Origin: an uncultured Ventosimonas sp.
GTDB lineage: Bacteria; Pseudomonadota; Gammaproteobacteria; Pseudomonadales; Pseudomonadaceae
Length of the DNA: 64,000 nt
Direction: 5' to 3'
NCBI GenBank assembly: GCA_946480835.1
Contig: CAMLLC010000010.1
Span: forward strand, 2,858 to 66,857
Shown here: one piece after another, positions 240 through 15,215 of the stretch
Position numbering within the stretch: the stretch's first letter is position 1
Layout: each line of letters opens with the position of its first letter
The notes under the pieces: model-generated
Told to the model about the DNA's origin: nothing
Seen by the model: only the letters and a program-made list of their open reading frames with translations
Database searches by the model: none
Program-made: the position numbers and the translations under genes

Positions 240-1778
240 TTACAATAATTCATTAATAAAATCTATTAAAATATTAATGCTTTTCTCGTTATCCGTTGCT
301 ATTGTACAGCTTACCGCTTTCTCTGCTGGGCTAAAGGGTTCTTTACTTGCCAATTGTTGTTTGACTACTTGCCAGGTGGCATCCGACGGGTCAACAGCGG
401 CCAAAGCGCGTTGTTTAAGATGTTGCTCTATAACAGATAAGGGTGCTTCACAGTTTATAATAATAAAAGGCACCCCTTGTTCTTCCGCGAGCTTAAGCGC
501 TCTCATCCTCTCTGCTTGCTTTAAATAGGCTGCATCTAAAACGGTAATGTAACCTGCTTGTAAACTTATCTTGGCTAATTTATAAAGCCTTTGATAAGTC
601 TGTTCAGTTGCTTGGGCACTATAAAGTTGTTCTTTAGCTGTGCTAGCACCCAATAATCTTTTGCGCTCGACATCACTGCGCACCCTAATAGCTGCAAACC
701 GTTCAACTACTTGTAACGCAACATAACTTTTTCCTACCCCAGAAACACCTGAGGTAATCAATAAACAGCGATGAGGAATAAAGGTATAGCTCTCCGCCAA
801 ATTGGCATAATTATAATATTGACTAAGAATAGCTTGCTGCACGCTTTGCTCTGTTACATGAGTTAAACTAAATAACGCTACTTTAGCTCTTACCATTGCC
901 CTGTAAGCCTTATAAAAGCTCATCAATTGCAGTGATTCATAATCCCCTGTCTGTTCAAGATAATTATTAAGTAATCTATTGGCTAGGGCATTAAGTTTTC
1001 TATCTTCAAGATCCATGACTAAAAAGGCAATATCATTAGCCACATCTATTAAACGGAAAGGTTGATTAAATTCTATACAATCAAAAAGCACTACCTTACC
1101 ATCTAGCACAGCTGCATTATTTAAATGAATATCACCATGACATTCTCTTACAAAACCTTCAGTTTTACGTTTAGCTAATAGTGGCTGTAAGCGCTGATAA
1201 GTAGCTTCTGCCCAAGCCTCTAACGCAGCTAATTGGGATAAACCTGCTTCATCTTTAGGTAACATTTCCCTAATTTGCTCAAAATTTTGTCTCACAGGGG
1301 CCATTACTACCTCTGGAGAACCAAAAGGGAGATCGAGGGCTACTTTAGGCGTTAGTTGATGAAAATTGGCAATCTGACTAGCTAACTCATCTATCTGCTC
1401 CGCCTTTAATTCACCTCTTGCCTGCAATTGACTAAGCAATTGATGCTGAGGAAATTGGCGCATTTTTAATACATATTCAATAGGCTCACCCTGTCCGGCT
1501 AATTGTGGTTTGGTAACTGAGTCAGTTATAGGCAATACCTCTAAATAAAGATCGTGGGTCAAGCGTTGATTTAACCGCAACTCTTCTTCACAAAAATGTT
1601 TGCGATCTGCTAACTGAGTGAAATTAAGGAAGCCAAAATCTACTGGCTTTTTAATCTTGTAGGCATAAGGACCTGTTAAAATCACCCACGAAATATGCGT
1701 TTCAATGACTTGAAATTGTTCAACTGGATGATTATAAAGCGCGGGATTTTGTAAAAACTTAATTAATTCTGCACTCAT
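240..1778 (-). CDS. Bifunctional aminoglycoside-phosphotransferase-like / P-loop (AAA_33, gluconokinase-like) kinase, PA4701-type
   Basis: N-terminal ETHISWV and YAYKIKKPV, kinase motifs HGDIHLNN and FDCIEFN, C-terminal Walker A GVSGVGKS and IRVRSDVERKRL. Start moved to the ATG at 1778 (SD AAGGA). Confidence 0.85.
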   Translation of the reverse strand: MSAELIKFLQNPALYNHPVEQFQVIETHISWVILTGPYAYKIKKPVDFGFLNFTQLADRKHFCEEELRLNQRLTHDLYLEVLPITDSVTKPQLAGQGEPIEYVLKMRQFPQHQLLSQLQARGELKAEQIDELASQIANFHQLTPKVALDLPFGSPEVVMAPVRQNFEQIREMLPKDEAGLSQLAALEAWAEATYQRLQPLLAKRKTEGFVRECHGDIHLNNAAVLDGKVVLFDCIEFNQPFRLIDVANDIAFLVMDLEDRKLNALANRLLNNYLEQTGDYESLQLMSFYKAYRAMVRAKVALFSLTHVTEQSVQQAILSQYYNYANLAESYTFIPHRCLLITSGVSGVGKSYVALQVVERFAAIRVRSDVERKRLLGASTAKEQLYSAQATEQTYQRLYKLAKISLQAGYITVLDAAYLKQAERMRALKLAEEQGVPFIIINCEAPLSVIEQHLKQRALAAVDPSDATWQVVKQQLASKEPFSPAEKAVSCTIATDNEKSINILIDFINELL

Positions 1779-1999
1779 GTTTGTTCCTTTATCTATTAGT
1801 CTACTAGTTAACATTATAGGGGGCAAAACAATAATCTACACCTTTAATAGTTATTTTTATTATAAAAACTAACATTATCTTTTTTATTACCAATAGTTAA
1901 CCTCTTGGTGAATTATAAATATTATCTATCTATCTTTATCCACTCTTTACTATAATCTTAGGTTACACTATTGTTATTATTTCATTAGAGATTGTGATT

Positions 2000-3538
2000 A
2001 TGTCTAATACTACTTCGCCTTTAGTGCTAATTATTTTAGATGGGTTTGGTCATCGCACAGAAAGCAAATACAACGCTATATCAGCAGCTAACACACCGAA
2101 CTATAATAAACTACTTGCTAGCCAGCCACATAGCCTTATTTCTGGCTCCGGGATGGATGTAGGACTACCTGTTGGGCAAATGGGTAATTCAGAAGTGGGC
2201 CACATGAACTTAGGGGCAGGTAGAGTTGTTTATCAAGATTTAACCCGTATTAGCAAAGCGATAGCCGATGGTGAATTTTTCGAAAACGCTGTCTTAAATC
2301 AAGTATTAGATAAAACCATTAGCCAGCACAAAGCCGTTCATATTATGGGCTTACTTTCTCCAGGCGGCGTTCATAGCCATGAAGACCACTTGTTAGCTAT
2401 GGCTGACATGGCAGTAAAAAAAGGGGCTAGCCATATTTTCCTACATGTTTTTTTAGATGGTCGGGATACTCCGCCTAAAAGTGCTGAAACCTCACTTAAT
2501 AAATTGAATAACCACTTAGCTAAACTAGGCAAAGGGCGTATTGCTACTATGATAGGTCGCTATTATGCGATGGATAGAGATAATCGCTGGGATCGTATCC
2601 AAGCGGCTTACGAACTGATAGTAGATCATACAGCTGAATACTTAGCTAAAGATGCTATTACTGCTTTACATAATGCCTATGCTAGAGGAGAGAGCGATGA
2701 GTTTGTTAAAGCCACTCGGATAGGCGATGTTGCCCCTGTCCACGATGGAGATGCAGTAATTTTTATGAATTTTCGTGCTGATCGAGCAAGAGAACTAACG
2801 CATGCATTTGTTGATAATGACTTTACTGGTTTTAAAAGACAACGCATAGCTAATCTAGCTGGATTTGTGATGCTCACACAATATGCAGCCACTATAGATA
2901 CCTTATGTGCCTTTCCTCCCAACTCATTGCATAACGTGTTAGGAGAATACCTAGCTAAGCAAGGAAAAACTCAATTACGCATAGCTGAAACTGAAAAATA
3001 TGCTCATGTTACTTTCTTTTTTTCTGGCGGAAGAGAAGAACCATACGAAGGAGAAGATCGTATTTTAATTCCTTCTCCGAAAGTGCCAACCTATGATCTA
3101 AAACCTGAAATGAGCGCTATAGAAGTAACCGATAAAATGGTCGAAGCTATAGAACAAAAACGTTATGATGTTATCATAGCTAACTTTGCTAACGGTGATA
3201 TGGTAGGGCATACCGGAGTATTTGATGCAGCCGTTAAAGCCGTAGAGTGTCTAGATCAATGTTTAGGAAGAATTGTCAATGCGCTTAACACTGTAGGGGG
3301 CGAGGTATTAATCACGGCCGACCATGGCAATGTAGAAAAAATGCGTGATGACACTACAGGCCAAGCACATACGGCTCATACCTGCGAATTAGTCCCACTC
3401 ATTTACGTTGGCTCTAGAAAACTACATATTAGAGAAGGGGGAGTGTTATCCGATGTGGCGCCAACCATGTTGACCTTAATGGGGCTGGCTATTCCACCAG
3501 AAATGACTGGCAAAAGCTTAATTAGTTTTGATAAATAA
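2000..3538 (+). CDS. gpmI: 2,3-bisphosphoglycerate-independent phosphoglycerate mutase
   Basis: [18 protein letters not shown] (phospho-Ser), [29 protein letters not shown] motifs. Confidence 0.97.
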
Positions 3539-3662: not shown

Positions 3663-4877
3663 ATGCGCTATTTGTTATTCGCTTTGTTGGCTTACTTATC
3701 TTTTGTTCCAGTTATCTTAGCTGATGAACGAAGTAATACTGTACGCCAAATTGAAATGGCCAAAATAGAAGTTAGCCAACTTGAAAAAGCCTTAGCTGCT
3801 CTTAAAGGAAAACAAACAAGCTTATTAAAAGAATTACGAAAAACGGAAACTGACATAGCTAATTTACAAAAAGAAATTACTAAATTAAAAATAGAATTAA
3901 CCAATACTGAACATAAAATAACTTGGTTAAAAGAAGAGCAACAAAAAACCGAACAGCTAAAGCAACAGCAAGAAAAAGTATTTGCTAGTCAAGCTAAAGC
4001 AACTTATGAAAGTGGTCGTCAAGAATACTTAAAATTATTACTTAACCAACAACAACCTGATAAATTATCTAGAACTCTGGTTTATTATGACTATTTAAGC
4101 CAAGCCCGTTTGATCCAACTCACCGAGTTTAAAGAAACCGTTAAGCAACTTGCTGATATTGAAGCTGAAATGAATCACTACCAGCAACAACTAAATGACC
4201 AGCAGCAAAAACTACAACAACAAGCCAAACAACTAGCCGATACACGTCAAAAACGGTTACAGGTACTAGCTACTATCAATAAACAAATCAAACAAAAAAA
4301 TGATCAAATTATCGAGCGCGAGAAAGATCAAATAGCACTTAGTAAAGTACTTAGAACAATAGACGCTACCTTAGCCCAACAAGCTAGCATAAGAGCTCTT
4401 AATAATCAAAACGACACAACGACTAACCCTCATAGCCTCCCCACCCAACAAGTAATAGCTAGTAGTGCAACCTTTAATGGCAACTTTAAACAAGCACAAG
4501 GAAAACTTTCTTGGCCAGTTTCCGGCAAACTTATTGCAAACTATGGTTCGGCAAGGGGGGATGATACGCGCAGTAAATGGGATGGGGTGATAATAGCTGC
4601 CCCAACTGGGACACCAGTCAAAGCTGTCCATAGTGGCACCATAGTTTATTCAGATTGGTTACGCGGGGTAGGCTGGCTGATTATTATAGATCATGGCCAA
4701 GGGTATTATAGTCTCTATGGCCATAATCAGACTTTACTCAAAAAAGTAGGTAACACTATTAAAGCAGGTGATACGATTGCTACTGTAGGTAATAGTGGTG
4801 GTAGCCAAAGTGCTGCTTTATACTTTTCCATTAGGCAACATGGGCAAGCTGTTAATCCAGCTTTATGGTGCCATTAA
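3663..4877 (+). CDS. envC: Murein hydrolase activator EnvC (coiled coil + degenerate M23 domain)
   Basis: Signal peptide, long coiled coil, C-terminal LytM fold (WPVSG, IIIDHG, YSLYGHNQ, LYFSIR), and conserved position between gpmI and ctpA. Confidence 0.92.
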   Translation: MRYLLFALLAYLSFVPVILADERSNTVRQIEMAKIEVSQLEKALAALKGKQTSLLKELRKTETDIANLQKEITKLKIELTNTEHKITWLKEEQQKTEQLKQQQEKVFASQAKATYESGRQEYLKLLLNQQQPDKLSRTLVYYDYLSQARLIQLTEFKETVKQLADIEAEMNHYQQQLNDQQQKLQQQAKQLADTRQKRLQVLATINKQIKQKNDQIIEREKDQIALSKVLRTIDATLAQQASIRALNNQNDTTTNPHSLPTQQVIASSATFNGNFKQAQGKLSWPVSGKLIANYGSARGDDTRSKWDGVIIAAPTGTPVKAVHSGTIVYSDWLRGVGWLIIIDHGQGYYSLYGHNQTLLKKVGNTIKAGDTIATVGNSGGSQSAALYFSIRQHGQAVNPALWCH

Positions 4878-4906
4878 TCTTAATGCGATCAATTGGAGAT
4901 GCCTTT

Positions 4907-6256
4907 ATGCCTAGAATGCAACCTGCTACCATTTTTTTATTAAGCTTGCTAACTTGCTTATTACCAGAACTGGCTGTCTATGCCCAAAACCATTCTAACC
5001 AACCAGTAGCCACTAACTCTTCTACTAAGCAACAGGCTAGCTTGCCATTAGATGAGGTGCGCACCTTCGTCAATGTCTTTGAACGCATTAAATCATCCTA
5101 CATAGAACCTATAGATGACAAAACCTTGATGGATAATGCAATTAAAGGCATGGTAAGTAACCTAGACCCTCACTCAGTTTATCTTGATAGCAAATCGTAT
5201 CATGCTTTAGAAGATATGACCAATGGTCAATATGGTGGTTTAGGTATAGAAATAGAGCAAAAAGAAGGATTTATCAGAATTATTACTCCACTAGATGATT
5301 CTCCTGCCGCCAAAGCAGGTATCCAAGCAGGAGATATCATAGTGAAAATTAATGATATACCTACTAAAGATATGTCACTTGATGACGCAGGTAATAAGCT
5401 AGCAGGAAAAATAGGCGAAAAAATTAATCTTACTATTGTTAGACAACTATCAGACCCCTTTATAGTCACTATAACCAGAGCTAAGGTACAAGTACCAAGC
5501 GTTAAATCACAATTACTAGAAAAAAATTATGGCTATCTTCGCATAGCACAATTTCAACACAATACGGGCAAAGAAGTTAGCAAAGGCTTAGCACAACTTA
5601 ACCAACAAAATGGCAGCAAACTTAAAGGGATTGTTTTAGACCTAAGAAATAATCCCGGTGGTATTTTACAAGAGGCAGTGACAACCGTTAACCAATTTGT
5701 AAGCAAAGGTCTTATAGTTTACACCAAAGGCCGTATGGCAAACTCAGAAACGCGCTTTTATGCCGATATAGGTGATCCTAGTCTAGGTATTCCCATGGTG
5801 GTATTAATCAATAACGGCAGTGCCTCTGCTGCTGAAATTGTAGCGGGAGCACTACAAGATTTGAAACGAGCAGTTATTATGGGCACTACCAGTTTTGGCA
5901 AAGGCTCAGTACAAACTGTATTACCCATTAATAAAACTGAAGCGTTAAAACTTACAACCGCTTTATATTACACCCCTAATGGCCGCTCCATTCAAGCACA
6001 AGGCATTGTGCCAGATATCATGGTAGAACAGGCAACCATCTCAAAAAACCAAAAACAATTTGAAGTCAGGGAAGCTGACTTACAAAATCATCTTAACAAC
6101 TCGACTGGCAAAGAACGCCCTTCAAGCAAAGTCAAAGTAGCGCAAATTAAAATACAGGATGAAGACTACCAACTAAGCCAAGCCATTGCGCTCTTAAAAG
6201 GGCTCAATGTATTGAATACCAAAACCTCCCCTCTAAAAACGGAGCAACACAACTAA
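4907..6256 (+). CDS. ctpA: Carboxyl-terminal processing protease, S41 family (PDZ + peptidase)
   Basis: LDPHS, GGLGIEI (PDZ), DLRNNPGG, SASAAEIVAGALQD (catalytic Ser), TSFGKGSVQ (catalytic Lys). Start chosen from the GGAGA SD. Confidence 0.95.
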   Translation: MPRMQPATIFLLSLLTCLLPELAVYAQNHSNQPVATNSSTKQQASLPLDEVRTFVNVFERIKSSYIEPIDDKTLMDNAIKGMVSNLDPHSVYLDSKSYHALEDMTNGQYGGLGIEIEQKEGFIRIITPLDDSPAAKAGIQAGDIIVKINDIPTKDMSLDDAGNKLAGKIGEKINLTIVRQLSDPFIVTITRAKVQVPSVKSQLLEKNYGYLRIAQFQHNTGKEVSKGLAQLNQQNGSKLKGIVLDLRNNPGGILQEAVTTVNQFVSKGLIVYTKGRMANSETRFYADIGDPSLGIPMVVLINNGSASAAEIVAGALQDLKRAVIMGTTSFGKGSVQTVLPINKTEALKLTTALYYTPNGRSIQAQGIVPDIMVEQATISKNQKQFEVREADLQNHLNNSTGKERPSSKVKVAQIKIQDEDYQLSQAIALLKGLNVLNTKTSPLKTEQHN

Positions 6257-6260
6257 CACT

Positions 6261-8108
6261 ATGAAAGATCAGCTTAACCAACATAAAGCAGATAGTAAAA
6301 TCTGTACAGCAGGTGTTGACCTTAATGGATTAATGCAAGTGCTGAGTAAACATCTCTACTCTACCCCTATGGTAGCCCTTAGAGAATTAGTTCAAAATGC
6401 CCATGATTCTATTGTTAGAAGACGCTTAGAACAGCCCTCATGGCAAGATAAAGCAGCTATCCATGTCATAGGAGATAGAAATAACAAACAACTACATATC
6501 ATAGATACAGGTGCAGGCTTAACCGAATATGAAATTCATACTTTCTTAGCAACTGTAGGCGTAGGTTACACTCGCAATCTACGTGAGCAAGATGATAATA
6601 CTGGTCTTATAGGCATGTTTGGGTTAGGCTTTTTATCTGCTTTTGTGCTAGCCAAACAAGTGACCTTACAAACCACCTCTTATCAACAACCTGATAAAGG
6701 TTGGTGCTATCGTTCTATTAATGGTGAACAATATACTGTTACAGCTATTGAACCAAGAACTAAGGTAGGCACAGAGATTATCTTAGACTTAAAAGATGAA
6801 TTTGTTTTTTTAAGTACTCTAGAAACGCTTAACCAAATATTAGGTCGTTATTGTATTTTATTACATGAACCTATCTATATTAATCAAGCCAAAGAAGCTA
6901 TCAACCCAGAACCTCCACCTTGGCGGCAACAGAGTGGCGATCTAATCACTCATCCTATACAAGAGCAAAAAAGAAGATTAAATTTTGCCACACGGTTTGA
7001 GCGAAATTTTGCGCCTATCTGTACTTTTCCCGTAAATCCAGATGGCAACAGTGATGCGATCGGCATGTTATGGGTACAAGATGGTGCTACTTACGGAACA
7101 AGCGATAACAGAAACCTATCCATCTTCTTGCGTGGAATGCTGCTAGATGATGATGCACGAGATCTGCTGCCAACATGGGCTGGCTTTATTGGCGGAGTAA
7201 TAGAGTCCGCTAAATTAGTACCTACTGCCAGCCGAGAAGATTTACAACGAGATGATAATTATCAATTTATCAAATACGCTTTATCAGAAGCTCTTATCAA
7301 AGGTTTAGCTGAGGTTGCTAATAAGCAACCAGAAGTTTGGCGGCGTATTTTAAAACGTCATAATGAAGCCTTATTAGGTGCTTCATTATGTGATGACAGA
7401 TTATTTGATCTATTGATGAATAGTATCAAAATTGCTACTTCGCAAGGTGATATAACCGTCAAAGAACTAATAGTTAATAATGCTATACATGTCATGCTAG
7501 GAGTCAGTGGTGGCTTTGAAGATACCCTCTTTAGAGCATTAAAAATACCAGTTGCTTTAGGTGACCGCTATGCCGTAGTACCTTTTTTAAGGCATTATGC
7601 AAATAAATGTCATATTAAACTAATAGAGCTTGGTACAGAAAAAGGCAATGAACAACTTTTTACATTAGTATCTTTAACCAATATTGAACAACAATGGTTC
7701 ACAGAACAACTAGCTGATGGTGAAGCGATAATAGCCGCGCGCTTTTTACCCAAAGAACTACCTTTAGTAATAGTAGCTGATCGAGAAGCTGAACTTAAAC
7801 AACGTTTAGAAGAAGATGAAGCTGATAAAAAAATATCACAAGCCGCGTTACGCTTAGCCAGACAATTCACCGCTAAAATTACTGCTACCACTACCAGTAA
7901 ACTTTATCTTAACTTAAATAACGCAGCTGTTAGCGACTTACTGGCAGCTTTTCATGCTAACCACAGCAACGCGAAACAAGCTGCACAGCTACTTAAATCA
8001 CTAAAAGTTATAATGGCTGGGCGGGATAGCCATCATTATGCATTAGATTTAAACAAAGCATTGGTCAACTTTACTCAGACCTTACAAACTATATTAACTT
8101 ATAACTAA
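6261..8108 (+). CDS. Hsp90/HtpG-family ATPase, divergent paralogue
   Basis: GHKL motifs LYS..ALRELVQNAHDS (E42, N46), IIDTGAG (D82), IGMFGLGFLSAF, GTEIILDLK; the INPEPPPW linker; middle-domain LVPTASREDLQ (R325, equivalent to the catalytic Arg in HtpG PLNVSRE). At 615 aa it is full HtpG length. Confidence 0.9.
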   Translation: MKDQLNQHKADSKICTAGVDLNGLMQVLSKHLYSTPMVALRELVQNAHDSIVRRRLEQPSWQDKAAIHVIGDRNNKQLHIIDTGAGLTEYEIHTFLATVGVGYTRNLREQDDNTGLIGMFGLGFLSAFVLAKQVTLQTTSYQQPDKGWCYRSINGEQYTVTAIEPRTKVGTEIILDLKDEFVFLSTLETLNQILGRYCILLHEPIYINQAKEAINPEPPPWRQQSGDLITHPIQEQKRRLNFATRFERNFAPICTFPVNPDGNSDAIGMLWVQDGATYGTSDNRNLSIFLRGMLLDDDARDLLPTWAGFIGGVIESAKLVPTASREDLQRDDNYQFIKYALSEALIKGLAEVANKQPEVWRRILKRHNEALLGASLCDDRLFDLLMNSIKIATSQGDITVKELIVNNAIHVMLGVSGGFEDTLFRALKIPVALGDRYAVVPFLRHYANKCHIKLIELGTEKGNEQLFTLVSLTNIEQQWFTEQLADGEAIIAARFLPKELPLVIVADREAELKQRLEEDEADKKISQAALRLARQFTAKITATTTSKLYLNLNNAAVSDLLAAFHANHSNAKQAAQLLKSLKVIMAGRDSHHYALDLNKALVNFTQTLQTILTYN

Positions 8109-8130
8109 CTTAGCCGAAGGGGGAAAACAC

Positions 8131-10437
8131 ATGGACATCTGGGATTGGGTATTTCGCTTAGAAGATGATCTAGAAGAAGCGGGGCATGAACATGCTAGCC
8201 GTATTATTGAACAAGTAAGTACCGAAATATTAGAACTTAATATAGGCAAAGCTGAAGCGCTATTACCAGAAGCTATTGCACTAAGTCGCAGCCTCAATAA
8301 TCCTTGGTTAGAAGTCTTCTTCAAACACTGGGAAATGCGTAATAGAATAGGTAATAAATCTGAGGGAGACTCCGTACTTGGCGATGTAGTGGAGTTATTT
8401 GAATTTGCTCACCGAGATGAAACCATTACCTGTCCACAATCTATTTGTGTCACCCAAGATTTATCTGCTTGCTATGCTAATATAGATGGTCCTGGCTGGG
8501 CCGAAGAACGTAAAGCAGTTTGTGATGAAACATTTGCAAGAATTGATCCGACATGGAGCTGTTTTCACTGCCTCTCCTGTGAATATGCTGATGCTTTAAT
8601 AGATGAAGGAAATCCACAACAGGCATTTGACTATTTGCAACAACAAAAAGCTAAAATCATAGCCGTTGGTGAGGAAGTTAGCGAAGCTATCAAAACATTT
8701 GAAGTACAAGCGTTGCTGCGTCTTAATCAAAATGAACAAGCATTGGCTATTTTAGAAGAATGCCAAGCAGCCGTAAAAGGCTATGATTGGCCAGTCAATA
8801 GTCAAGAACGGCATATTCTTAAAGCGCTGACCTTAGCTAAACTGGGTAAAACTTCAGAAGCATGGGATGAACTACCTAATTTTAAAAGTGTAGCTCCCCG
8901 CTATTATTTAAGCTGGATTAGAGCAATAGATGTTCTGCTAACCCATGAACCGGACAAAAATGAATGGGCCTTAGGCAGTGCGCTACAAGAAGCATTAGAA
9001 CATTTTATGAAAATGGGTAATTATCGCAAGGTCATAGAAGTTGCCGCGCTGCAAATTCGTCTGGCTATGGCTAGACAGAGTGTCTGGACTGCTAAAAGAG
9101 CGTTAGCTATTGCTAATGAAGCTTTACCAAAATTGAAAGAGCCACTAGGGGCTGATCAACTACTGACCAAACTAACCAACCAAATAGCTAGCCAAGCAGC
9201 TAATAATTCATTGCCAGTACCTGCCAATGAATTGATGGCTTGGTTAGAAGAAAGAGCAAAACATCAACAAAGAGGACGTAATCCTGAACAAGAGGTTGAA
9301 TTATTACTACAGGCAGTAGCTGAACTACCTGACGATGAACCCCTACTAGAAATAACTGTTTCAGCATTACAAGCTTGTAATGCTACAAAAGAGGCTGAAC
9401 AACTAATGTGGCAATTTATAGAAAGAAATCATCAACATGAGTCATCAGCCGCTTATAATCTGCTTAATGGCTTAATATCCACAAATAGATTAGCAGACAT
9501 TGATAAACTCGCTGAATTTTACCAAACCAGCCAACCTGCTGTAGCTTTGTGGTGCAAAATCCAACAAGCCTTTGCTAAACAGGAGTTAGATCTAGCTAAA
9601 ACGCTTAGCCAGCAAATGCATGAGATCGTACCAGATTACTTAGGGCCAGTGCGTATGCTAGTGCTAATAGCAGTACGCCAACAAGATTTTGCTGCCGCTG
9701 AAAAATGGCAACAGCTTGTGATTGAGAAAAACACAGAAGATCCTCGCAATGATTTATGGGATTTACTTACTTATAGCTCAGCCAATCAAAATTGGAGCAA
9801 AGCTAGAGAGGTAGCTAAACAACTTGAGATTCCTTTAACCTCTACTGAAGGGGTGATTAATGAGGAATGGGGCTGGGTACGTATTCAGGTAGAAGAGCAA
9901 GGTGATACGCTAGAATATTTAGCCCATTGCACAGGGCCTGTCACCGCCATTATTAAAGAACCTGCCTATGCGAATAAAACACAACGAGTAGATGATTGGG
10001 TAGTATATGATGCGGCGCAACTAGCTCCTGTCCCAGAAGATGAAGAAGAGAAGAAGCATTTTATCCCACTTTATAAATTAGTCAAAACCCTCCAGCCGGG
10101 TGACTTTGGGCAGAGCTGGTTTATTGACGGCATCTACCCGGGAGATGAAGCTTTTCAACTTTTGGAAAAACAAATCACAGATAAAGGATGGCGGTTATGG
10201 GTGCAAAGTAACTCAAACTACCAAATTACTGACCAATTTGATCTAGATGAAACACCTCAACAAGGTATATTCTTCTGTATCGTAGCGCCTAAAGCGGTAA
10301 CTCCTGTTGAACTAGATAAATTCTTAACGGCAGCTACAGAAGATTGGGCGTTACCAGTGCATTGGTTGAAGTTAGCAGAAGCAGCAGGAGCTGCTGTTGA
10401 ACCTCATCAAGAAATTATTAGTCGTTATAAACTATAA
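8131..10437 (+). CDS. Large cytoplasmic TPR-like alpha-solenoid protein with N-terminal Cys cluster and C-terminal alpha/beta domains, function unknown
   Basis: Strong SD (AAGGGGG), 768-aa ORF, no signal peptide. TPR-like helical pairs include YADALIDEGNPQQAFDYL, ALLRLNQNEQALAILEE, ALTLAKLGKTSEAW and AVRQQDFAAAEKW. Cys at 101, 106, 114, 131, 144, 147, 150. Confidence 0.8.
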   Translation: MDIWDWVFRLEDDLEEAGHEHASRIIEQVSTEILELNIGKAEALLPEAIALSRSLNNPWLEVFFKHWEMRNRIGNKSEGDSVLGDVVELFEFAHRDETITCPQSICVTQDLSACYANIDGPGWAEERKAVCDETFARIDPTWSCFHCLSCEYADALIDEGNPQQAFDYLQQQKAKIIAVGEEVSEAIKTFEVQALLRLNQNEQALAILEECQAAVKGYDWPVNSQERHILKALTLAKLGKTSEAWDELPNFKSVAPRYYLSWIRAIDVLLTHEPDKNEWALGSALQEALEHFMKMGNYRKVIEVAALQIRLAMARQSVWTAKRALAIANEALPKLKEPLGADQLLTKLTNQIASQAANNSLPVPANELMAWLEERAKHQQRGRNPEQEVELLLQAVAELPDDEPLLEITVSALQACNATKEAEQLMWQFIERNHQHESSAAYNLLNGLISTNRLADIDKLAEFYQTSQPAVALWCKIQQAFAKQELDLAKTLSQQMHEIVPDYLGPVRMLVLIAVRQQDFAAAEKWQQLVIEKNTEDPRNDLWDLLTYSSANQNWSKAREVAKQLEIPLTSTEGVINEEWGWVRIQVEEQGDTLEYLAHCTGPVTAIIKEPAYANKTQRVDDWVVYDAAQLAPVPEDEEEKKHFIPLYKLVKTLQPGDFGQSWFIDGIYPGDEAFQLLEKQITDKGWRLWVQSNSNYQITDQFDLDETPQQGIFFCIVAPKAVTPVELDKFLTAATEDWALPVHWLKLAEAAGAAVEPHQEIISRYKL

Positions 10438-10449
10438 ACCTTAACTAAC

Positions 10450-10483
10450 ATTCATGTGTTAAAGTCATTTTTAACACATGAAT
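10450..10483. repeat. Perfect 14-bp inverted repeat (terminator-like or operator)
   Basis: ATTCATGTGTTAAA-gtcatt-TTTAACACATGAAT, 13 nt after the TPR gene stop, with no U-tail. Confidence 0.8.
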
Positions 10484-10785
10484 AGATAGTTAGCCAATAA
10501 TTACCCAAATAAGGTTAACAGTCTTGATATTGAAATATAGCTTAAGGCTTTACCCTTTAACTCATGATAAAAAAAGAAAAATTTTTAATTATTATAGTTT
10601 CCACCCTAACATCTCCTAAAAATATCGTTATCTTAAGGTGATCATTATTTTTTATCCTCATTAATTGATAAGCTACATTTTTTTAATTAGCATTTGAAAC
10701 ATGATAATTAAAACTAACCACAGGTTTAGTTAATTATATCAATCAGCTTGTTAACCCCATTCAAGTTAACTCTTATTTTATTGAT

Positions 10786-10811
10786 AAAAAAGGCGTAGTT
10801 GGCGCCTTTTT
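10786..10811. terminator. Bidirectional intrinsic terminator at the yegP 3' end
   Basis: AAAAAAGGCG-tagttgg-CGCCTTTTT. Confidence 0.75.
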
Positions 10812-11151
10812 ATTTCTTGATGGTTAAATCTTTAATAGTGGTAGTACAACCATTTTTTTTCACTGACTCTATACCTTTATCACGAGCCGTGGTCGTCTCA
10901 TAAACTTCACTGTTACCTATAACTTGATAATTGGCTGCTTTTAAAGTGAAATAAAATTTACCACTTTTAGCTACTAACAGACTATAGCGCTTTGCATCAC
11001 CACTATTTTTTTGGACCGACGCAATACCTATTTTGGTAGATGCTTTTTGCTTATACATTTCACTGGTTAAAATAACCTCACCATTATGGGCCTTCAAGGT
11101 AAAATAAAACTGTCCATTTTTAGCTTTTTTAATTTCAAATGTACCTACCAT
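10810..11151 (-). CDS. yegP: YegP-family protein (tandem DUF1508)
   Basis: Two repeats: FEIKKAKNGQFYFTLKAHNGEVILTSEMY and YSLLVAKSGKFYFTLKAANYQVIGNSEVY. SD AAGGAG precedes the ATG at 11151. Confidence 0.92.
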   Translation of the reverse strand: MVGTFEIKKAKNGQFYFTLKAHNGEVILTSEMYKQKASTKIGIASVQKNSGDAKRYSLLVAKSGKFYFTLKAANYQVIGNSEVYETTTARDKGIESVKKNGCTTTIKDLTIKK

Positions 11152-11270
11152 TATCATCTCCTTAATTAATTGAAGTTTTATTTATAAATTAAAGCTATTT
11201 TTTTTGATACTAGACCTAAGCCTATAATAAACATTAGTTTTAGTTGTTGCTTTTAATATTTTTTATCCCA

Positions 11271-13550: not shown

Positions 13551-15080
13551 TTAAGCATGTTGTTGTTGCCTTTTAGGTAAAGCTTGCTCTTTGCCTTTAT
13601 GTTTAAGATGATCTTTCCAAGCGCGCGGCGGTTCACCTAAAAAGCGTGGCCAGCCATGCGTACCTATTCGTATAAAATCTTGTTGCATGGCTTGTTGAAT
13701 AGTTTCTAATGAATGCTGCTGGCTAGCTAGCAAAAATTCAAACACTAGCGCAAACAATTTATCTAAGGCAATACCATGTGTTTGATTAACTTTTGGGAAA
13801 GCCCATTGACTAAAGGCTGCTATATTACCAAAAGCATCATCATTCAATAATAACGGTAAAGTAAACTTGAATCGTCCTGAATTTGCTATTAAATCCCAAA
13901 ACTTAGCTATTTTCTTAATATGATTTACCTCTTCATAATCCAAATCTTTATTAGCTAATAAAGTATAAGGTGGCAAACTACTAAATTTATAATCATAAGC
14001 TTGGTTATGACGTTTAATAGGTGTTCCTTTTAAGCGTTTCAATAACCCTAATTGAATCTCTTGCGGCTGCCAAGACCACAATTCATTAAACCCTTTGGCA
14101 AAGTTTGCTAAGTTTTCAGCAGGTAAACCAGCTATCAAATCTACATGCAAGTGAACTGTAGTATGCTTAGATAACCAACTAATATTTTCTTTAGCTTTCA
14201 ATAAATTAGTTTTTCTTGAAATCAGCGTTTGCGTTTCTGCATAAAGCGTTTGAATACCAATTTCAAACTGTAAACTAGCGGCAGGAAATTCTAAGATTAA
14301 AGCTTTTAACTCGTCAGGAAGATGATCGGGCACGAGCTCAAAATGTAAAAATAATGATTCATCTGGATATTGTTTTAGCTTATCTAAAAAAAACTGTAAG
14401 ATAGTGGCAGTAAATTCTTTTTTTAAATTAAACGTCCTATCTATAAATTTAAATTGCCGTAAGCCTCTTTGGTAGAGTTTATCCATAGCTGCCAAAAAGG
14501 GTTCTAGTGGAAACATCCATGCCGTTTTATCTAAACTAGATAAACAAAATTCACATTTAAAAGGACACCCCCTAGAAGCCTCTACATAAATGGTTCTATG
14601 CTTTATATCATCATCCGTATAATAATCATAAGGTAATAAAATAGTTGCTAAATTTGCTTGAATACCTTGTATAACCTTACTAGCTATCATTTGCCCTGCC
14701 ATCAATTGATGGCAAAGCTGATAAAAACTGATATCTCCCCAACCTGTTATTAAATAGTCAGCCAATGTGAAAATCTCAGTTTTTTGATACTCATAGGAAA
14801 CTTCAGGGCCACCAATAATAATTGATATGTCTGGCCTTAATATTTTTAATTCTCTAATAAGTTGCGTAGTTTTTTCAATATTCCAGATATAAACTGAAAA
14901 ACCTATAATATGGGGATTCTTGTTAACTATTTGTTCTAGCATGTCCTCCACATTTTGTTGAATTGTCAATTCTAAGATATGCGTCTGTTGTTGCAACTCC
15001 TGCATATTGGCATATAGATATCGTAATGCTAATGAAGCATGCGCGAATCGAGCATTAAGCGTAGTTAACAAAATAGTCAT
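13551..15080 (-). CDS. B12-binding radical SAM protein with DUF4080-like C-terminus
   Basis: N-terminal cobalamin-binding domain (LALRYL, IIGFSVYIWN, IGGPEVS), CxxxCxxC in ASRGCPFKCEFC, FEIGIQT, HVDLIAGLP. Start set to the ATG at 15080. Confidence 0.88.
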   Translation of the reverse strand: MTILLTTLNARFAHASLALRYLYANMQELQQQTHILELTIQQNVEDMLEQIVNKNPHIIGFSVYIWNIEKTTQLIRELKILRPDISIIIGGPEVSYEYQKTEIFTLADYLITGWGDISFYQLCHQLMAGQMIASKVIQGIQANLATILLPYDYYTDDDIKHRTIYVEASRGCPFKCEFCLSSLDKTAWMFPLEPFLAAMDKLYQRGLRQFKFIDRTFNLKKEFTATILQFFLDKLKQYPDESLFLHFELVPDHLPDELKALILEFPAASLQFEIGIQTLYAETQTLISRKTNLLKAKENISWLSKHTTVHLHVDLIAGLPAENLANFAKGFNELWSWQPQEIQLGLLKRLKGTPIKRHNQAYDYKFSSLPPYTLLANKDLDYEEVNHIKKIAKFWDLIANSGRFKFTLPLLLNDDAFGNIAAFSQWAFPKVNQTHGIALDKLFALVFEFLLASQQHSLETIQQAMQQDFIRIGTHGWPRFLGEPPRAWKDHLKHKGKEQALPKRQQQHA

Positions 15081-15215
15081 CAAATAATAAGTACCCAGCA
15101 AATAACCAAACAGCTAATACCCTAAACCCAAATAGCTTAATTTAGTGTGGTAATTTAGCAGTGTGCAGTTTACTAGATAAGGCTTATAATTTATAGCTTA
15201 CCTAGGGAGTAAACA

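Follow-up and report, generated by a model that had tools for sequence, protein, structure and literature searches.

Does a bacterial Hsp90 have a partner protein of its own? This question was raised by a stretch of 64,000 nucleotides (nt), referred to below as the window, on contig CAMLLC010000010.1 of an uncultured Ventosimonas sp. (genome 2.62 Mb, ~38% GC, 31 contigs). There, a gene for a diverged Hsp90-family protein, which we call Hsp90L, is followed 22 nt later by a gene for a large protein, which we call the partner. The initial annotation of this locus had proposed a dedicated chaperone module, possibly with an anti-phage or conflict role. The first part of this proposal stood, in that the two genes form a conserved, self-contained pair built around an Hsp90 paralogue and belonging to no named system; the second part did not. 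The reading that we prefer, with a probability of about 0.45, is that the two proteins form an ATP-driven chaperone machine in which the partner is a cofactor or adaptor dedicated to Hsp90L.

The coordinates, sequence details, 22-nt spacing and strong Shine-Dalgarno sequence first reported for the pair were all correct, and both open reading frames (ORFs) are open. The features of the pair, with residues given as amino acids (aa), are:

6261-8108, + strand: Hsp90L, Group-C-type paralogue of the Hsp90 family, 615 aa (NF010683, NF003555, PDB alignment, tree)
6315-6905, + strand: GHKL ATP-binding N-terminal domain of Hsp90L, about aa 19-215 (alignment with the HtpG N-domain; limits approximate)
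7221-7247, + strand: middle-domain catalytic loop PTASREDLQ of Hsp90L, with R325 (aligns with HtpG NISREILQ)
8109-8130, + strand: 22-nt spacer with the Shine-Dalgarno sequence AAGGGGG (direct reading of the sequence)
8131-10437, + strand: partner protein, 768 aa, uncharacterised family (without Pfam match; downstream of Hsp90L)
8131-9825, + strand: predicted TPR-like helical solenoid of the partner, aa 1-565 (AlphaFold2 (AF2) model, profile matches, Foldseek)
8431-8571, + strand: four-cysteine site of the partner, C101-x4-C106 ... C144-x2-C147 (family alignments)
9868-10434, + strand: predicted C-terminal alpha/beta domain of the partner, aa 580-768 (alignment and stand-alone AF2 model)

The Shine-Dalgarno sequence sits 7 nt before the ATG of the partner gene.

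The two genes are strictly linked and share a history

The view of the locus as a two-gene module was confirmed by the strict conservation of co-occurrence and gene order wherever we looked. All 80 species loci retrieved with the partner profile carried Hsp90L directly upstream on the same strand, at 54-66% identity. Gaps between the aligned stretches at these loci were mostly 17-140 nt, the true spacers being shorter. The pair kept its order among differing neighbours, which were an AraC-type regulator and an Old Yellow Enzyme (OYE) reductase in Xanthomonas, a LysR regulator and ABC-transporter (bra) genes in P. aeruginosa, and hok genes and yjdP in Cronobacter. The same order was found at 26-27% partner identity in Sandaracinaceae (Myxococcota), in Hahella and in a third lineage (L102). 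Among 400 genomes evenly drawn from the class, the partner was present in 4, and an Hsp90L of the pair-linked clade was present in the same 4, adjacent each time. No orphan copy of either gene was seen across the loci and genomes examined.

Distances between Hsp90L proteins closely tracked those between partners (Mantel r 0.95; none of 2000 permutations as high). Both trees recovered the same groupings, namely the window with Wohlfahrtiimonas and Ignatzschineria, Phytobacter with Kosakonia, Xanthomonas with Stenotrophomonas, and the basal lineages. The pair is inherited and transferred as a unit.

Some loci showed features of their own. In Ignatzschineria (L036, 7343-8000) the gap between the two genes is unusually long, at 659 nt, and at three examined loci a regulator gene (AraC-type, LysR or sigma-54 activator) lies just upstream of the pair. 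A candidate natural fusion of Hsp90L and partner (P0290, 860 aa; L099 6001-9645, ERZ25039592:contig_28447), combining Hsp90 Pfam domains with the N-terminus of the partner, was rejected owing to out-of-frame stretches at both junctions. The remainder of the partner is called there as separate genes, and by its sequence we take P0290 to be a frameshifted assembly or a pseudogene or decaying copy, not a real fusion.

Hsp90L is a paralogue of HtpG with an intact ATP site

Hsp90L had been described at the outset as a full-length HtpG-like protein, diverged yet with intact GHKL boxes and catalytic Arg, and this was borne out by profile matches and invariant motifs. The best curated model was NF010683, 'HSP90 family protein' (residues 18-578, E 7e-81), whose cut-off of 455 bits (PRK14083) is above the 272 bits scored by Hsp90L. 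The HtpG model NF003555 matched with E 6e-59 and 200 bits and its curated cut-off of 371 was likewise not reached. Pfam PF00183 matched residues 278-366 above its cut-off, and alignment to the PDB structures of HtpG (2iop/1y4s, E 1e-26) covered residues 14-376 of E. coli HtpG. Towards the C-terminal end, NF010683 aligned up to residue 578 of 615, and phmmer alignments to Hsp90s in the PDB ended at residue 365.

The motifs of the ATP site are readily recognised as RELVQNAHDS (E42, N46), IIDTGAGL (D82), GMFGLGFLSAF (G118, G121, G123) and TASRE (R325). An alignment of 21 pair-linked Hsp90L homologues contained 122 invariant positions, including E42, N46, D82, G84, G86, G118, G121, G123 and R325, together with P321, T322, A323, E326 and Q329 around R325 in the catalytic loop. 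Since the ATP-site motifs and R325 are invariant, Hsp90L is expected from its sequence to be an active Hsp90-type ATPase. Neither Hsp90L nor the partner has a signal peptide or transmembrane segment visible on inspection by eye.

A separate canonical htpG was found on contig 3 of the same genome (PF00183, E 2e-133), confirming that Hsp90L is a paralogue; its product (642 aa) and Hsp90L (615 aa) share 24% identity. A maximum-likelihood tree of 21 pair-linked proteins and 10 canonical HtpGs from the same phylum was split by a branch of ~10 substitutions per site, and Hsp90L fell in the separate, long-branched, pair-linked clade with 100/100 support. The second copies of gamma-proteobacteria were named Group C by Chen et al. 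2006 (PMC1525184), and groups B and C were excluded from functional inference by Press et al. 2013 (PMC3708813). Judged by sequence, Hsp90L belongs to this ancient non-HtpG lineage of the Group C type.

The NF010683 cut-off was reached in none of 400 genomes sampled from the phylum. Two of 14 control genomes (E. coli and Corynebacterium glutamicum) matched this model, one of them above cut-off, C. glutamicum being the likelier of the two. The score of Hsp90L below cut-off, combined with the lack of any phylum genome reaching it, indicates that the Hsp90L clade is a sister subfamily of NF010683 and not a member.

The partner combines a solenoid, four cysteines and a separate C-terminal domain

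The partner had been taken for a helical-repeat protein. In the AF2 model (predicted local distance difference test, pLDDT, 92.8; from a 38-sequence alignment) this description holds for aa 1-565, which form helical hairpins comprising 29 helices, and fails for aa 580-768, which form an alpha/beta domain. The partner family profile matched consensus TPR proteins with E 1e-28. The window partner alone fell below Pfam thresholds, with no Pfam match, and a Foldseek search with the whole partner returned generic TPR solenoids only. As modelled, the partner is a TPR-repeat solenoid over aa 1-565.

A search of 1.84 billion representatives (clusters at 50% identity) placed 363 clusters in the partner family at E<1e-30. 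Full-length proteins of 730-797 aa make up most of the best 150 of the 363, and the others are shorter and likely fragments. Homologues of near-constant size were found at 39-46% identity in Budvicia, Xanthomonas, Stenotrophomonas, P. aeruginosa, Cronobacter, Enterobacter and Rhodocyclaceae, and farther relatives in Hahella, Bacterioplanoides, Myxococcota and Nonomuraea.

Four cysteines stand out in these alignments. C101, C106, C144 and C147 were all invariant in 38 partner sequences; across a diverse set of 58 representatives, with identities as low as 25%, C101 remained invariant and the other three were conserved in at least 90%. C114 is conserved in closer relatives only, and C131 and C150 are not conserved. 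Both conserved pairs lie at loop-to-helix starts in the AF2 model, an arrangement that fits a metal site.

The C-terminal domain has its own set of invariant residues (G602, P603, Q618, D622, D627, P635, E636, D637, H759, R765, Y766 and L768), and the protein ends in an invariant R-Y-x-L. Modelled alone, the domain again gave a confident prediction (AF2 pLDDT 92.3), and no Pfam family matched it at E up to 1. Its best PDB match by Foldseek was 5ueb, followed by generic ferredoxin-like folds. The former, an uncharacterised N. gonorrhoeae protein, is described as Tudor-like in PMC8466066, where it is connected with the N-terminal domain of PA2504, a DUF2314-DUF2185 protein. A fold assignment by way of 5ueb was dropped, the template modelling (TM) score being 0.34-0.43. 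In the partner of a Psychrobacter metagenome-assembled genome (L084, ~9924-10523), a loop of the C-terminal domain carries a low-complexity insertion of ~25 residues, NNNNMDSHFSDSGDNSEYGDD.

A pair under purifying selection behind ctpA

In the window, the pair closes a run of five ORFs, all on the + strand: gpmI, an envC-like gene, a ctpA-like gene and the ORFs of 615 and 768 aa. The features flanking the pair are:

1994-3538, + strand: gpmI (Pfam/NCBIfam)
3663-4877, + strand: envC-like M23 activator (Pfam/NCBIfam)
4865-6256, + strand: ctpA-like S41 protease (Pfam/NCBIfam)
10787-10811, + strand: terminator-like hairpin 3' of the pair (consensus scan)

Only 4 nt separate the ctpA stop from the Hsp90L start (6256/6261), where the pair adjoins the 3' end of the cell-envelope operon gpmI-envC-ctpA. 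The hairpin at 10787-10811 is weak evidence alone, as the scan yielded no more sites than shuffled sequence.

The partner was present in all five other species of the genus, and the order gpmI-envC-ctpA-hsp90L-partner was found in all four congeneric species examined. From this layout, the five genes probably make up one transcription unit in the window's genus. Among congeners, Hsp90L is 75-79% and the partner 66-72% identical, with similar values for the flanking genes. Ratios of nonsynonymous to synonymous substitution (dN/dS) were 0.06 for Hsp90L, 0.12 for the partner and 0.06-0.08 for the flanking genes; dS was saturated, making these ratios rough. By this measure, the pair is under purifying selection much like that on its neighbours. 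Its behaviour in this genus is that of an accessory function encoded on the chromosome, for housekeeping or stress, and not that of a mobile immune module.

Several other genes of the window were noted in passing. A DUF1508 tandem (YegP-like) protein is encoded at 10810-11157 (- strand), convergent with the partner gene, and the hairpin between the two genes may serve both. At 13551-15101 (- strand), 3 kb downstream of the pair, lies a gene for a 516-aa B12-binding radical SAM protein with DUF4080. This protein matches the PADLOC candidate model PDC-M51A (E 7e-34, residues 19-373), and its gene is found near the pair in congeners too. Divergent from gpmI, at 240-1826 (- strand), a 528-aa fusion joins an APH-type phosphotransferase (residues 101-300) to an AAA_33 kinase (residues 355-497).

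PA1069 of P. aeruginosa is expressed outside the heat-shock response

Evidence on expression came from P. aeruginosa PAO1, where PA1068/PA1069 is the orthologous pair, in the same order and by the side of braG. The partner there is 46% and Hsp90L ~61% identical to the window proteins, and the chromosomal neighbourhood differs from that of the window. The assignment of these two locus tags rests on neighbouring genes and on the remark of an operon in PMC4053335. That study places PA1069 in an operon with an Hsp90 gene and reports its protein as induced by Ca2+ and by biofilm growth. PA1069 is also ~four-fold down at 46 C (PMC4957987), is activated by AmrZ and enriched in chromatin immunoprecipitation (ChIP) (PMC3946381), and appears in the BatR pull-down list (PMC13411936). 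Its induction by Ca2+ and biofilm growth, together with its fall at 46 C, shows that PA1069 is expressed in P. aeruginosa outside the classical heat-shock response. Literature searches on PA1068/PA1069, Hsp90C/Hsp90B and HtpG2/HtpG-like turned up no functional study and no account of the pair as a system; PA1068/PA1069 occur only among the hits of omics tables.

The response of these genes to Ca2+, AmrZ and growth in biofilms, and not to heat, would suit a regulatory switch: depending on redox or metal status at the four cysteines, the GHKL/Hsp90 dimer would gate a binding site or an activity of the C-terminal domain. Conservation of the cysteines throughout the family points the same way, as do the invariant polar residues Q618, D622, D627, E636, D637, H759, R765 and Y766, which are of the kind found in a binding or catalytic site. 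However, neither Foldseek nor Pfam gave a fold or family match pointing to an enzyme, and the Cys4 site is a candidate metal site drawn from sequence and helix positions. We consider such a switch quite unlikely.

Cofactor or client of the Hsp90?

The interpretation of the partner as a dedicated cofactor or adaptor draws together the linkage, co-occurrence and mirrored trees of the two genes, the intact ATPase of a true paralogue, selection on both genes, the constant length and Cys4 site of the partner, and the literature on PA1069. In the mechanism that we propose, the Hsp90L dimer would act as an ATP-dependent clamp and the TPR solenoid of the partner as a binding scaffold. The Cys4 site may be a metal site, structural or redox-sensitive, and the C-terminal alpha/beta domain would be the end that binds a specific client or ligand. 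Both the role given here to the cysteines and the choice of cofactor over client for the partner are our inference. A more specific version, in which the partner is the first dedicated bacterial Hsp90 cofactor, a TPR/Cys4 adaptor that binds other than through EEVD and couples the ATPase cycle to a specific client or a redox or metal signal, is doubtful.

A number of points weigh against a cofactor. Physical contact between Hsp90L and the partner is itself inferred. In contrast to eukaryotic Hsp90, Hsp90L has no conserved EEVD: none was found in 22 pair-linked C-terminal tails, which vary in length and sequence, and this lack of conservation makes docking of the eukaryotic type unlikely. Shared inheritance would equally produce strict linkage and mirrored trees in any functional pair, so these do not separate a cofactor from a client or a signalling partner, and the literature provided no client or phenotype of the pair. 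The distribution is patchy as well. The partner was found in 6 of 36 other genomes of the family (1 of 31 outside its own genus), the pair in ~1% of the class sample (4/400) and 0.5% of the phylum sample, and, in E. coli, in 255 of 5426 complete genomes (4.7%), always on the chromosome. Such patchiness is typical of accessory modules, immune systems among them. In the one annotated E. coli record examined, fdhD and yiiG flank the pair, whose genes are labelled 'ATP-binding protein' and 'hypothetical protein'.

The roles could also be reversed, with the partner as obligate client. As such it would be the functional product itself, whether scaffold, sensor or enzyme, and would need a private Hsp90 for its folding, its metal site or its solubility. 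One-to-one linkage is compatible with this, and the partner is a large, multi-domain protein whose Cys4 site may need help with the insertion of metal. It also evolves faster than Hsp90L (mean pairwise distance 0.57 versus 0.43). On the other side, bacterial private chaperones are usually small proteins, and a full ATP-driven Hsp90 would be unusual in that role. The very confident AF2 model is not suggestive of a metastable protein, although this is a weak argument. No evidence tells the client from the cofactor, and we regard an obligate client as unlikely.

The pair does not resemble a defence system

Because the distribution is patchy, we keep a role in conflict or immunity at low odds. By analogy, the TPR partner would sense an invader or stress, and the Hsp90-type ATPase would act as switch or effector arm. 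The accessory spread of the pair shows signs of lateral transfer: both trees place the window copy with Wohlfahrtiimonas and Ignatzschineria, yet in the other genera of its own family the partner is nearly absent, and the small share of E. coli genomes that carry the pair is of the same kind.

The suggested anti-phage or conflict role was nevertheless not borne out by PADLOC, by plasmid and phage searches, by synteny, by dN/dS or by the literature. The statement that the pair is no named defence system proved correct, since no PADLOC-DB 2.0 model matched beyond a generic domain and none was found in the literature. Hsp90L matched the TmtA model PDLC03972 with E 5e-6 and 23 bits, over residues 4-142 (the GHKL N-domain only), and the partner gave a marginal 38-residue match to the candidate PDC-S05 (E 0.0024). 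Tiamat (TmtA) has the GHKL ATP-binding N-terminal fold in common with Hsp90L and is described as an ATPase and DNase (bioRxiv 10.64898/2026.09.30.754977). However, TmtA models span 1300-1650 positions, and beyond the matched N-domain Hsp90L is Hsp90-like and without nuclease. Neither Pfam nor Foldseek revealed a recognisable effector domain in the pair.

The genomic evidence pointed in the same direction. Among 72,556 plasmid records, tblastn found the partner in 3, and two of these are the size of a chromosome. The single 'phage' record with the partner was a 156-kb Salmonella contig, and true phage records numbered zero. The pair is therefore essentially absent from plasmids and phages, and all 255 E. 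coli copies are chromosomal. The neighbourhoods at the loci examined were varied and metabolic, none of them a defence island as judged without a formal enrichment statistic, so that the expected location in defence islands was not found. In all four congeners, finally, the pair is syntenic in a housekeeping operon with housekeeping-like dN/dS. A pair that is old, patchy, chromosomal and strongly constrained is more in keeping with an accessory physiological role than with a defence island, and an immune module is, in our judgement, very improbable.

Comparison with known Hsp90 systems

Accounts of the bacterial Hsp90 mechanism usually set it against the eukaryotic system with its many cofactors. 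A bacterial Hsp90 lineage seen solely with one TPR protein offers a simple, genetically tractable two-protein system, and it occurs in P. aeruginosa PAO1, Xanthomonas, Stenotrophomonas and some E. coli strains. Such a system could be used to learn how an Hsp90 is directed to its task and what non-HtpG paralogues do. The linkage also gives context to ~360 sequence clusters now labelled 'hypothetical' or 'TPR protein'.

Hsp90L is assigned to the three-domain Hsp90 family of HtpG (group A; NF003555; PDB 2iop) and mitochondrial TRAP1, and has the GHKL site, glycine motifs and catalytic Arg of that family and a length similar to that of the genome's own HtpG. It differs from HtpG in a C-terminal half that phmmer could not align and in invariably having a dedicated partner gene behind it, whereas bacterial Hsp90 has been described as co-chaperone-free (PMC6986101). 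The partner of the P. aeruginosa homologue, moreover, is not heat-induced. The papers on Group C and B paralogues (PMC1525184, PMC3708813) dealt with sequences only and mentioned the partner in none. The present analysis adds the genus-level synteny behind ctpA, the dN/dS values, the agreement between the two trees and the finding that exactly four cysteines are conserved throughout the family.

Eukaryotic Hsp90 with its TPR co-chaperones (Hop/Sti1, CHIP, PP5, Sgt1) likewise associates an Hsp90 ATPase with a TPR protein. The association of Hsp90L with its partner is known from operon genetics, and the eukaryotic pairs are likened to it by the presence of a TPR protein and an Hsp90 only; the partner profile matched the TPR domains of CHIP and Sti1 with E 0.25-0.39, which is not significant. 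The architectures also differ, since the partner has a predicted 14-hairpin solenoid with a Cys4 site and a C-terminal domain of its own, whereas the eukaryotic co-chaperone has a 3-repeat clamp. If the partner is indeed a cofactor, the partnership of Hsp90 with TPR proteins would not be a eukaryotic invention.

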